Below are positions 1 through 5,283 of a stretch of 5,283 bases of DNA, one piece after another (the stretch's first letter is position 1; each line of letters starts with the position of its first letter). Location of the stretch: the IMG/VR virus record IMGVR_UViG_2534681742_000007; one strand, given 5' to 3'. A model generated the notes under the pieces. That model was not told the origin of the DNA. It worked only from the letters and a program-made list of their open reading frames with translations, and made no database searches. The translations under genes and the position numbers were made by a program. The stretch comes from a virus (Duplodnaviria; Heunggongvirae; Uroviricota; Caudoviricetes).

Positions 1-408
1 ATGGCAACTCTTAAATCAATAATGGCAATAACCACCTTAATAATTTCACTCAATGCATACGCAAACACGAATGACATTAAAACTCTTCAAAAACAACTGA
101 AACCATGGCAACCACTGGAAATCACAACAAAAGATAGCTCTCTTACCGTTGTTCTCCCTGCTAAAAAAATCACATCAGAAGCCTATAATCATTTAATTAT
201 GTCCGGTGTATGCACCCCACTCTGGACACATGACGCTCCTTCTTCATTTTTAAAAAATGTAAGTGAAATCAATATAGTTAACCAATATAAGTCTATTGGA
301 TATACCTTTGAAGACCCATTGACCACATGCAATGAAATCGCTCCGTTAATGGAAAAACCTGCACAAACAGTGGTGTTATCCAAAACTCATACCTACACAG
401 GTAAGTAA
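1..408 (+). CDS. hypothetical small secreted protein (135 aa as read; ORF starts at window edge, so the true N-terminus could lie upstream)
   Basis: ATG at 1-3, stop TAA at 406-408. N-terminus MATLKSIMAITTLIISLNAYA-NT has a signal-peptide layout (charged n-region, hydrophobic core, AYA signal peptidase I-type site). Two Cys in the mature part (GVCTPLW, TTCNEI). Visibly AT-rich relative to the rest of the window. Followed at 425-448 by a hairpin terminator. No family recognised from sequence. Confidence 0.5.
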   Translation: MATLKSIMAITTLIISLNAYANTNDIKTLQKQLKPWQPLEITTKDSSLTVVLPAKKITSEAYNHLIMSGVCTPLWTHDAPSSFLKNVSEINIVNQYKSIGYTFEDPLTTCNEIAPLMEKPAQTVVLSKTHTYTGK

Positions 409-424
409 ATAGCTCAAATAAGAT

Positions 425-455
425 AAAGCCCCTCGACTGAGGGGCTTTCTGTTTG
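425..455. terminator. bidirectional rho-independent terminator between convergent genes
   Basis: Perfect 10-bp inverted repeat AAAGCCCCTC (425-434) / GAGGGGCTTT (439-448) with 4-nt loop GACT. Followed on the plus strand by CTGTTTGT and on the minus strand by AUCUUAUUUG. Lies 17 nt after the stop of the 1-408 gene and 11 nt after the ogr stop (459-461). Confidence 0.6.
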
Positions 456-2415: not shown

Positions 2416-4863
2416 TTAACCGTCATGCATCATGCTGGCACGGGCGCGCGCACGTTTATCCCGCTCGTATTTTTCGAGCGCATCCTGTAACTGGCGGTCA
2501 AGCTGTGTCCCCGGCGCAGTACCACCCGTCAGGCTGATGTGATATTCGTTTTTACTCTGGTCTACATAAGAGCGGCCAGCCGGTGCCGTAACCGGCTGAT
2601 AAGCCTGATAACCTGCATAAGAGCTGGTCGCCGGAATATAACCACCGGTGCCATACGTGGCGGCATGAGTTCTGGCGGCGGTCTGGTCAAGTGTGTCTGA
2701 CTCTTTGTTGATAACACCGAGTTTTTCCAGCACCCAGTCAATACCGCTGCGCAGTTTGTTGAACGTATTAAGCGGCAGCATCAGCGCGTCAGCCAGTGCC
2801 TGCCCGAACATGACCCCCGTGTCACGGCAACGGTTCAGGGTGTCCTGTGTGGCTTTAACCGGGGCAATCAAGTTTTTAAACCACTGCCACGCGGCCTGTA
2901 ACTTTTCACCCAGCCAGTCAAACACCGGCTTAAGTGGCGTGAACAGTTCCCCCACCGGCGCAAATGCCACTTTCAGCCCTTCAACCACACCGCCAAAGAA
3001 TGCGCTGACAGGCTCCCAGTATTTACGGATAAGCAACGCCCCGGCGACAATTGCGGCCACCACGGCCACAACCGGCCAGCTAATAGCCCCGATGGCGGTC
3101 ATAACAGCACTGCCAACCGTCGTGAAGATTGCCCCCATTGCGCCTGCTGCCGCGATGATGGCATTGATGCCGGTGATAACCGGCCAGGCTACGAGGCCAA
3201 TGGCACCGATGACACCAATCAGTGCCAGTGCACCACCGACAATGATGCCGATGGTTGACGCCAGTGATTTGTTTTTCTGGATCCAGCCGTCGAGTTTTAA
3301 CACATACTTTGTGGCCGTCTGCGTGAGATTACGCAGTGCGCCTTCCTGCTGGTCAAACAGGTCAGTCCCCACCGCCTCATAAGCGGACTGAAACTCCTTA
3401 AAGTCACCGCCGAGGTTGTCCTGCATGATATTTACCAGCTCTGCGGTCTTTCCGTCTGAGGCTTTAAACGCAGCGGTCAGTTTGTCCAGCTTTCCGGTTG
3501 AGGCGGCAGTCATCAGCACGGCGGCGGCTGAGCTGGCCTCCTCCCCGAAAATAGTTTTCATGTATTCAGCCTGCTGGGCAGTACCGAGCCGGTTTTTCTC
3601 AAAACTGGCCTGCATTTCTTTCAGAATGGTAAATATTGGCCTGGTGTTTCCCTTGCTGTCTGAGGTTTTTACGCCAAGCTCTTTGAGTGCATCCCATGCT
3701 TTTCCCGTCGGTGCCTGCAGGCGGCTTAACACGGCACGGCTTCCCGTCCCCGCCATTGAGCCTGTGATTTTTGCATCATGCAGCGCCCCGACCATTGCGG
3801 CGGTTTCTTCAATGCTGACACCGGCATTTTTTGCCACAGGTGCGGCATAGGTCAGCGCATCGCTCATGCCGTCAAAATCGGCGGCGGTTTTGTTCATCGT
3901 CATGGAGAGAACATCCCCGATATGAGCGACCTTATCGTTTGAAAGCTGAAAAGCGGATTTCATCCCCATCAGCAGGGCGGCGTTTTCTTCCATCGTGCGG
4001 CGGTTCGCCAGCGCCATATTCAGCGTGACCGGCGTTGCCGCCTGAATGGCATCAACATCCCCACCCGCTTTCGCGATGATTATCTGTGCACCGGCCGCAT
4101 CATCCGCCGAGGCGGCAGTATTGTCACCGAGCTGGCGCGCCTGTTTGCGTAGTGCTGCCATTTCGGCGGAATCTTTTGCCACACCGAGCACGGCCTGTAA
4201 TTCTGAGTTTTTCTGCGCAAACTCATAACCGGGCATCAGTAGCTTAACACCGGCCATCGTTCCCGCCGCCGCAATCCCCACACCGGCAGCGCCCACTGAG
4301 GCCATATTTCCGGCCAGCTCCTTTCCGGCCTGATAACGCTGTTTTACTGCGTTAAGTTTTGCCTGTTGCGCACTGACACGCGCCAGCGCGTCACGCTGAC
4401 GGTTAAGCTGTGCGGTGGTTTCACTGATACGGTTTTTCAGTCCCTGCTCATCATGTGCAAGATTGCGGGTATTAATTCCCACAGCGGCCAGTTCCCGCTG
4501 CTGGCGTTTAACGGAATCCGTCAGGCGGTTATATTTCGCCTGTAAGTCCTCCGCCGCACGCTTTGCGGATTCCAGCACTTTCGCCTGAGCACGGGTCGGA
4601 CGTTCGGTGTTTTTAAACTGTGTGGCAAGGGCTTCTGCTTCCTGCCGAGCCTTTTCAAGTGCATGACCAGTCACGGCGAGCTGTGCACTGGTCTTGCGGA
4701 ATCCCTCAATACGGGATGCCTGACCGTTCAGCTCGCGCAGTGATTTTTGTGTTTCCCGGATATCCCCCGACAGCGACTTGCTCGCTGTGCGGATGGATTT
4801 AAACGGACGGGATGCCTGGTCAACAGCCCTGAGCAATACCTGTAATTTTACATTGTTACTCAT
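2416..4863 (-). CDS. T: tail tape measure protein T (P2 gpT)
   Basis: 815-aa ORF, the length of P2 gpT. N-terminal two-thirds is rich in A/Q/K/R/E and coiled-coil-like; the C-terminal third has a long Gly/Ala/Ile/Val-rich hydrophobic segment (…IGIIVGGALALIGVIGAIGLVAWPVITGINAIIAAAGAMGAIFTTVGSAVMTAIGAISWPVVAVVAAIVAGALLIRKYW…). Lies immediately downstream of E/E'. ATG at 4863-4861, stop TAA at 2418-2416. Confidence 0.92.
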   Translation of the reverse strand: MSNNVKLQVLLRAVDQASRPFKSIRTASKSLSGDIRETQKSLRELNGQASRIEGFRKTSAQLAVTGHALEKARQEAEALATQFKNTERPTRAQAKVLESAKRAAEDLQAKYNRLTDSVKRQQRELAAVGINTRNLAHDEQGLKNRISETTAQLNRQRDALARVSAQQAKLNAVKQRYQAGKELAGNMASVGAAGVGIAAAGTMAGVKLLMPGYEFAQKNSELQAVLGVAKDSAEMAALRKQARQLGDNTAASADDAAGAQIIIAKAGGDVDAIQAATPVTLNMALANRRTMEENAALLMGMKSAFQLSNDKVAHIGDVLSMTMNKTAADFDGMSDALTYAAPVAKNAGVSIEETAAMVGALHDAKITGSMAGTGSRAVLSRLQAPTGKAWDALKELGVKTSDSKGNTRPIFTILKEMQASFEKNRLGTAQQAEYMKTIFGEEASSAAAVLMTAASTGKLDKLTAAFKASDGKTAELVNIMQDNLGGDFKEFQSAYEAVGTDLFDQQEGALRNLTQTATKYVLKLDGWIQKNKSLASTIGIIVGGALALIGVIGAIGLVAWPVITGINAIIAAAGAMGAIFTTVGSAVMTAIGAISWPVVAVVAAIVAGALLIRKYWEPVSAFFGGVVEGLKVAFAPVGELFTPLKPVFDWLGEKLQAAWQWFKNLIAPVKATQDTLNRCRDTGVMFGQALADALMLPLNTFNKLRSGIDWVLEKLGVINKESDTLDQTAARTHAATYGTGGYIPATSSYAGYQAYQPVTAPAGRSYVDQSKNEYHISLTGGTAPGTQLDRQLQDALEKYERDKRARARASMMHDG

Positions 4864-5283
4864 TCGTGTTTCCGCTTCGCCTGAGCGCCTTTTCGCGCCA
4901 TGTGATGAGTTCGGTCAGGCTCATGGGATACAGTTCTGATGGCGGCCAGTGAAATATCACTGCCACATCCGCCATCAGGTCATCGACCGAGAGATTTTTC
5001 GGAAACGTCACTGCACCGAGTTCGGCGACAAAAAACCGACCACCTTACCGGCCAGCGCCACAAGGTCAGGCAGTTCCAGCGCGGCGACCTCCTGCTCGGT
5101 CAGCATCGGTGCCGTCATGCGCGGCAGCACTTTAATCAGTGCATCGACTTCGGAGTTTGCGACCGCAGCCAGACTGACACCGCGCAGCGTCCCGGCATTG
5201 GGTTTCATCAGCGTGACCTGTTCGATAACCTGTTCACCACGTTTAACCGGATTATCCAGGGTAATGACGTTTTCTTTGTTCAT
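4856..5283 (-). CDS. E+E': E+E' tail assembly chaperone produced by programmed -1 frameshift (about 142 aa)
   Basis: Hand translation of the -1 frame after the T TTT TTG heptamer (plus 5035-5029) gives an open extension …VAELGAVTFPKNLSVDDLMADVAVIFHWPPSELYPMSLTELITWREKALRRSGNTNE. It ends at TAA 4858-4856, 3 nt past the T start codon. Total of about 85 + 57 = 142 aa, the size of P2 E+E'. Analogous to lambda G/GT. Confidence 0.7.
5008..5283 (-). CDS. E: tail assembly chaperone E (P2 gpE, 91 aa)
   Basis: ORF MNKENVITLDNPVK…GKVVGFLSPNSVQ, 91 aa as in P2 gpE. Contains the in-frame slippery run GGT TTT TTG near its 3' end. Its ATG is the last three bases of the window (5283-5281), so the upstream ribosome-binding site is not visible. 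Confidence 0.82.
   Translation of the reverse strand: MNKENVITLDNPVKRGEQVIEQVTLMKPNAGTLRGVSLAAVANSEVDALIKVLPRMTAPMLTEQEVAALELPDLVALAGKVVGFLSPNSVQ
5029..5035 (-). other. -1 programmed ribosomal frameshift slippery heptamer T_TTT_TTG
   Basis: Minus-strand sequence GGT TTT TTG TCG (plus 5037-5026) in the E reading frame. The run of six T followed by G is the P2-type slip site, and the -1 frame downstream is open for 57 codons. Confidence 0.7.

Follow-up and report, generated by a model that had tools for sequence, protein, structure and literature searches.

Classical phage morons are set between conserved phage genes, deviate in base composition and carry a terminator of their own. Lambda bor and lom, HK97 gp15, and P2 old, tin and Z/fun are units of this type, i.e., single genes that are present or absent in a variable hotspot, and many defence systems have already been found in the old/tin and Z/fun hotspots of P2-like phages. 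Other small phage proteins with a signal peptide or an envelope location, e.g., P1 Sim and T4 Sp, stop infection after adsorption. In the P2-related Vibrio phage K139, a small protein of 137 aa with a signal peptide, Glo, is encoded on the lysogeny side (gene order cI-orf2-glo-int) and is described in the K139 record as a "periplasmic protein; involved in phage exclusion". Rousset et al. (PMC9122126) identified the slot between cI and int in K139-like phages as a defence hotspot.

This study deals with a window of 5,283 nucleotides (the whole stretch of DNA that was analysed), which is 100% identical to E. coli GN04592 (identical record L001). This window represents the tail end of a P2-like prophage, with ogr, D, U, T and E/E+E' on the minus strand. 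A gene for a 135-aa protein lies at positions 1-408 of the plus strand, convergent to ogr, and is an uncharacterised example of a familiar element, namely, a prophage moron that encodes a predicted exported protein in a variable hotspot. Like Glo, the window protein is small, has a predicted signal peptide and is encoded on the lysogeny side. The slot of glo in K139, after the repressor and a BRCT-like gene, is also that of the family gene in one relative (L044), whereas in the window's phage the gene comes after int and attP, and glo comes before int. Homology to Glo was rejected, since comparison of Glo with the family by hhalign gave a probability of 1.4%, i.e., no detectable homology. The classical morons are likewise single-gene units of variable hotspots; the hotspot of the window gene, however, is the gap between ogr and attP and not the old/tin or Z/fun locus, and its product is a predicted soluble periplasmic protein, whereas classical morons encode lipoproteins, outer-membrane beta-barrels or cytoplasmic enzymes. 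The window protein showed no homology to bor, lom, HK97 gp15, old, tin or Z/fun. The export features of P1 Sim and T4 Sp agree with those predicted here, an analogy that is functional only.

Relatives by descent have also been named in other phages, namely, gp9 of Burkholderia phage KS14, SP004_00135 of Salmonella phage FSL SP-004, orf1 of Serratia phage KSP20 and QIW90038.1 of Yersinia phage P37, each of them annotated as "hypothetical". These are true homologues, 24-100% identical to the window protein, that share its length class, signal peptide, Cys pair and convergence on D. No function is described for any of the four, and in the KS14 genome paper gp9 is treated as no more than hypothetical.

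The 135-aa gene and its predicted product

The gene (positions 1-408, stop codon included) is an ATG-started open reading frame (ORF) in the ORF list and is annotated as the same CDS in RefSeq (WP_000212593.1), which is present in NZ_CP095538.1 and in phage P37. In the identical record, an AAGGA Shine-Dalgarno sequence lies 6 nt 5' of the ATG, and an in-frame TAA is found four codons 5' of it (L001 11989-11991). Because of this stop codon the ORF is complete and has no upstream extension, and a larger host gene reaching in from upstream, a possibility raised in an earlier note made from the sequence alone, is ruled out. The G+C content of the gene is 0.36 (0.34-0.39 over positions 1-400) compared to 0.55 for the rest of the window. 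No non-coding RNA was detected in the window by an Rfam search at gathering scores.

The N-terminus of the protein contains a single Lys and a hydrophobic core of 12 residues, and A-Y-A directly precedes N22. For residues 1-21 (positions 1-63), a Sec (SPase I) signal peptide without lipobox was predicted, with cleavage at AYA/NT. This call is heuristic, i.e., a simple hydropathy and AXA test, which both the window protein and 176 of the 182 stand-alone family members pass. Residues 1-19 are disordered in the AlphaFold2 model, and pLDDT falls below 50 only there. The protein is thus predicted from its sequence to be exported to the periplasm with the Sec signal cleaved at AYA/NT. The window protein has no Cys before residue 71, and a lipobox-like motif occurs in just 3 of the 182 stand-alone homologues; a lipoprotein, i.e., an exclusion factor of the Cor, Llp or Ltp type, was rejected for want of a lipobox Cys at mature position +1. 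C71 (positions 211-213) and C110 (positions 328-330) are both (nearly) invariant in the 47-sequence family alignment and probably form a disulfide. A Pfam search of the protein gave no match at E<=1, integrase domain included, and an integrase remnant was rejected on this ground and by the presence of the real int upstream of attP in phage P37. The features that the earlier note had read here, i.e., an ORF for a 135-aa protein, AT-richness relative to the phage genes, a signal-peptide-like N-terminus, two Cys and a lack of integrase motifs, were all recovered.

The predicted mature part (positions 64-405) comprises 114 aa and forms an alpha/beta domain according to the AlphaFold2 model. This model, built from the 47-sequence alignment, has a pLDDT of 84.7 and a pTM of 0.76; in the mature domain, pLDDT per 10-residue block ranges from 81 to 97 and exceeds 90 in 9 of 12 blocks (the others having 81, 90 and 84). 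Comparison of the model with solved and viral structures gave no convincing fold match; the model is confident but has no structural relatives, and the fold assigns no function. Sequence and profile searches with the protein in Pfam, NCBIfam, PADLOC and PDB gave no matches, none of the defence-protein models in PADLOC-DB 2.0 was hit at E<=10, and the periplasmic lysozyme inhibitors Ivy and MliC/PliC matched neither by family profile nor by fold. The protein does match the PHROG 3807 profile from end to end (residues 1-135 on positions 1-135 of 135, E 2e-60).

A cassette in the gap between attP and ogr

In the isolated Yersinia phage P37, which encodes a 100% identical copy of the protein, the gene order is C, int, 324 bp containing attP, and the gene, with ogr and D on the other strand. 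The phage sequence shared by P37 and the E. coli junction begins at GATAAAAAAAACCCCCACATCATGTGGGGG, a point ~200 bp 5' of the ATG in the gap beside fieF. The interval from this point to the gene contains the GTCCACA Int arm repeats, followed by a plus-strand terminator hairpin (L001 11916-11939, beyond the window; 62 nt 5' of the ATG, -14.8 kcal/mol), a second terminator that insulates the gene from upstream. On the other side, a bidirectional intrinsic terminator hairpin, AAAGCCCCTCGACTGAGGGGCTTT, is located at positions 425-448, as found by a terminator scan on both strands and by folding energy (-18 kcal/mol, z -4.2 and -5.3). It is followed by a T-rich tail and is common to the gene and the convergent ogr. 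The equivalent hairpin is annotated in the P2 record as the ogr/F-operon terminator, and the Int P-arm sites of P2 are found 4 nt past it with no intervening gene. Similarly, a prophage of E. coli J6 that shares both the att site and the Ogr protein lacks the gene and has just one hairpin (alignment A3). The right-hand boundary of the inserted DNA falls at positions 418-425, where homology to ~2,030 E. coli genomes that carry ogrK and lack the gene begins. The gene thus forms a ~510-bp cassette, inserted between the attP arm sites for Int on one side and the terminator of ogr on the other. The earlier note was correct on the P2 order (ogr, attP, 3' end of int), as the P2 record confirms, but its placement of the gene just outside the P2-like module was not, as the gene lies ~200 bp inside the att junction.

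The two bracketing hairpins (L001 11916-11939 and window 425-448) have identical 8-bp stems, AAAGCCCC/GGGGCTTT, and cargo-free prophages have one hairpin. This suggests gain or loss of the cassette through duplication of the ogr terminator or through recombination at that site.

Among 5,426 complete E. coli genomes, the ogr part of the query has a match in 2,072 and the gene is present in 44, each of the latter with one intact copy whose match continues into ogrK. The gene is absent from the other ~2,030 ogrK-carrying genomes (~98%), in which homology to the window begins at 418, 425 or 434 (terminator); K-12, in which the ogr part only is matched, is among them. In no E. coli genome is the gene found without an adjacent ogrK. 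The cpxP/fieF att site is used in all five of the 44 carriers that were inspected (two with allele A and three with allele B, as defined below). The gene is therefore not host core or island DNA: it is identical in phage P37, it is always accompanied by ogrK in E. coli, and K-12 lacks it. Of the earlier suggestion that the gene is acquired cargo or island DNA, horizontally acquired cargo is supported and host or island DNA is not. The gene has the properties of a moron in being present or absent among close relatives, in its deviant G+C content and in having its own downstream terminator. In E. coli ESY003, the same att/ogr slot contains a gene for a 213-aa hypothetical protein on the minus strand, for which Pfam gave no family, together with IS150 (L041 298-2453); this alternative cargo shows that the slot between att and ogr is a genuine variable hotspot.

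Two alleles occur in E. coli: allele A in 17 of the 44 carriers (>=98% nucleotide identity), and allele B, of 133 aa, in the remaining 27 (~76% nucleotide and 69% protein identity). Prophages that are 100% identical in Ogr and 99% identical in gpD may differ in this protein to the level of 69% identity, divergent alleles being exchanged on a nearly unchanged backbone, and co-variation with gpD was not seen. Between alleles A and B, dS is 0.11 for the upstream DNA and signal peptide versus 1.3-1.4 for the mature part. Because of this jump, a recombination breakpoint would lie inside the gene, at around positions 60-120 (codons ~20-40), and the sequences point to intragenic recombination between alleles. 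The C-terminal part of allele B is similar to a Citrobacter allele. For the mature domain, pairwise comparisons gave dN/dS values of 0.05-0.2, dS frequently being saturated, which indicates purifying selection on a functional protein; diversifying selection is unsupported, dN/dS being well under 1. In the Enterobacterales at least five allele classes below 55% identity were distinguished, several of them per host genus and single classes crossing genera, and the G+C content of the gene is 0.37-0.45 compared to 0.50-0.60 for gpD. A third allele, 44% identical, occupies the same slot in a Salmonella Newport record, where the order is again fieF, gene, ogr and D. This record (L055, NZ_CP051374.1, "plasmid" p20723-1) is linear, 194 kb long and contains sbp, pfkA, fieF and the P2-like prophage, and it is probably a misassigned chromosome fragment.

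The remainder of the window follows P2. The late-gene activator gene ogr (OgrK, 72 aa) is located at positions 459-677 of the minus strand (Pfam Ogr_Delta, 2e-21; RefSeq), and tail gene D (baseplate hub) at 759-1922 of the same strand (Pfam Phage_GPD, 3.3e-26; synteny table). The mechanically called ogr ORF (459-740) has a TTG start and 93 codons, whereas the start used in RefSeq and in P2 is the internal ATG at 677, which yields 72 aa. The elements of the P2 ogr promoter would fall in the gap at 678-758 after gene D. At the far end, the E gene (5008-5283) and an overlapping "GpE family" ORF (4856-5011) correspond to the E/E+E' pair of P2, in which programmed frameshifting is an ordinary feature. 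Beyond the window, the same prophage encodes a 197-aa hypothetical protein without Pfam match (L001 19392-19985) in the gap between the tail-fibre assembly and sheath genes, which is the classical Z/fun hotspot of P2.

A family with a recurrent position

Word-indexed searches retrieved 51 relatives in Enterobacterales and in Burkholderia/Paraburkholderia. An HMM scan of 1.84 billion representatives extended the family to 359 clusters (at 50% identity) with E<=1e-3, 212 of them with E<=1e-10. The label "orphan", given to the gene earlier, is therefore not applicable to a member of PHROG 3807 with a family of at least 359 clusters. Conserved features in alignment A2 (47 sequences) are LQKxLKPW, GxCxPxW, N94, G100, F103 and C71/C110. 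The number of Cys in the mature part is even (2, 4 or 6) in 164 of 184 homologues (89%), with two in 102 members and four in 60. Unlike the window protein, members of the Burkholderia clade are extended at the C-terminus by a segment containing a second Cys pair, and the G+C content of their genes equals that of the phage. In some relatives, the domain is located behind a membrane anchor or is joined to another module (pentapeptide, SH3_3, YARHG or VasI); several of these modules are typically found outside the cytoplasm.

The gene is convergent on gpD in 30 of 30 IMG/VR loci, a figure biased towards phages since IMG/VR contains viral contigs only, and in seven phage or prophage records (P37, FSL SP-004, Klebsiella ST147-VIM1phi7.1, KSP20, a Klebsiella prophage-plasmid, KS14 and the E. 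coli prophage). In the loci examined, which range from Enterobacterales to Burkholderia, the family gene is always on the repressor/int strand, with the coding sequence for Ogr either upstream of it or between it and D. In phages of Paraburkholderia and Burkholderia (L049-L050, L033-L035), an HTH repressor gene is followed by a gene for a 241-aa protein with a membrane segment and then by the family gene. In L044, an HTH_3 repressor gene is followed by one for a 159-aa protein, which has a weak BRCT-like region, and then by the family gene. The BRCT-like region, the only Pfam similarity of this neighbour, aligns with the BRCT portion of K139 orf2 (E 0.001), and from this order of repressor and BRCT-like gene it follows that the L044 gene sits in the slot of glo. 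The gene order in L044, L049-L050 and L033-L035 fits co-transcription with the repressor; in the window's phage, a terminator lies ahead of the gene, which comes after int and attP.

Two kinds of neighbour deserve mention in their own right. The 241-aa protein (L049 5194-5919, with homologues in L033-L035) has a C-terminal membrane segment and a Cys-containing tail, and is a possible membrane partner for the exported protein. In the non-P2 mobile elements L045 (5714-6004), L051 (3793-4092) and L052 (4734-5093), an overlapping ORF of 96-119 aa lies upstream of the family gene; its products have a signal peptide, two Cys and the motif GYVGCLTE...RQMQALLG, and may form a second uncharacterised exported family acting with the 135-aa family. 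Pfam gave no family for the 241-aa membrane protein or for the exported partner (99-119 aa). Two-gene cassettes of this kind, with a second exported protein of ~100 aa, are found on mobilisable or Rep3 elements. Other distant members of the 135-aa family occur on plasmids that range from a 5.8-kb Halomonas plasmid up to Pseudomonas megaplasmids, in one case adjoining a type I R-M system, and in one case in an unremarkable chromosomal setting.

Proposed role and alternative explanations

The gene very probably encodes a real exported accessory protein of the phage. The reading preferred here, i.e., that it is a phage-borne accessory ("moron") protein that guards the lysogen in the periplasm, is given an even chance. 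The cassette is a self-contained unit with its own ribosome-binding site and a terminator hairpin on either side, and it is present or absent among near-identical prophages. According to this proposal, transcription would proceed on the repressor/integrase strand, opposite to the late tail operon, as for the last gene of the repressor operon in several relatives. Expression in the lysogen is considered reasonably probable because of the location on the repressor/int strand and at the end of the repressor operon in relatives, and it would probably be driven by a weak promoter of the cassette itself. A TATAAC/TATAAA element ~35 nt before the ATG is kept across diverged alleles, with a poor -35 region, and a promoter scan upstream of the gene gave no site above the 9/12 threshold. 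Such a gene is not mentioned in the Salmonella BTP5 transcriptome data (PMC7067206).

The product would then be made with a cleavable Sec signal peptide and freed into the periplasm as a 114-residue alpha/beta domain, which would probably be stabilised by a C71-C110 disulfide. There it would stop genome delivery by superinfecting phages or another envelope-directed attack, as a functional analogue, not a homologue, of Glo. A role specifically in superinfection exclusion or envelope defence is put forward tentatively, by analogy, because of the location in or beside the lysogeny module, the slot equivalent to that of glo, the hotspot context and the pattern of allele classes. The genomic context thereby gives somewhat more weight to lysogenic conversion or exclusion, which the earlier note had offered as speculation. 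It is more doubtful that the family represents a novel type of periplasmic exclusion or immunity protein, with its own fold and a fixed slot between the lysogeny module and D in Peduoviridae as well as on plasmids, that blocks DNA delivery by contractile-tail phages, tailocin delivery or another envelope attack, with specificity set by the allele classes.

A function in host fitness or lysogenic conversion apart from phage defence, e.g., in stress tolerance, colonisation or virulence, as for the host-helping lambda morons bor and lom and the periplasmic SodCI of Gifsy-2, is considered unlikely. It would account equally for the moron anatomy, the AT-richness and the export, and the occurrence of relatives on plasmids of very different size and on non-phage chromosomes suggests a benefit that is independent of phages. 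Clinical, ETEC and avian isolates are among the E. coli carriers; the gene is, however, found in only 0.8% of the complete genomes with no obvious restriction to a pathotype, and no similarity to known virulence or stress proteins was found for its product. The fixed place beside gpD or the lysogeny module, across phages of beta- and gamma-proteobacteria, would moreover be left unexplained.

The protein might instead bind toxins or hydrolases that act in the envelope (T6SS effectors, bacteriocins, lysozymes or muralytic enzymes of phage tails) as a periplasmic immunity or inhibitor protein, which is judged quite unlikely. A small protein without a catalytic motif that is predicted to be periplasmic and disulfide-bonded is typical of such inhibitors, one relative is fused to the T6SS-associated VasI and others to the cell-wall-associated SH3_3 and YARHG modules, and deeply divergent allele classes within one host genus are expected for determinants of specificity. 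In alphaproteobacterial elements, furthermore, the gene is paired with one for a second small exported protein.

It is very unlikely that the protein serves the lytic cycle, e.g., by modulating lysis or by reducing the loss of progeny on debris, with expression by C-int read-through or by late transcription. In the circular phage genome, the gene does lie directly 3' of int on the same strand, it is conserved beside the structural operon in distant Peduoviridae, and in Burkholderia phages its G+C content equals that of the phage, like that of a long-resident gene. A strong terminator, however, separates int from the gene, and the gene is dispensable, since P2 and ~98% of the ogrK-carrying E. 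coli genomes are without it. Reading by eye, no Ogr-type late promoter with the right spacing was seen upstream. A TGT...ACA-like sequence found there was rejected as a late promoter, since its spacing is wrong (N13), it falls on the Int arm repeats and it precedes a terminator.

Finally, a spurious or decaying ORF in AT-rich junk at the prophage end, to which the missing functional annotation and the lack of a promoter over the scan threshold might point, is effectively refuted by the conservation data, i.e., the full-length PHROG match, the 359 clusters and the dN/dS of 0.05-0.2 with saturated dS, as well as by the confident structure model and the intact state of the gene in 44 of 44 E. coli copies.

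More than one in three complete E. coli genomes contain P2-like prophages. Between ogr/D and the att-int-repressor region, these phages have a third variable slot, far less explored than the old/tin and Z/fun hotspots, and the 135-aa gene is a recurrent occupant of it from Enterobacterales to Burkholderia. As a small, predicted exported protein with a confident model that has no structural relatives, its product is a cheap and well-defined candidate for work on envelope exclusion or another lysogenic-conversion trait, although specialists would find nothing here very surprising. If it does not block contractile-tail delivery, the gene is an ordinary uncharacterised moron. If such a periplasmic block is true, it would represent a mechanism that is poorly represented among known defences and would be relevant to phage and tailocin therapy.
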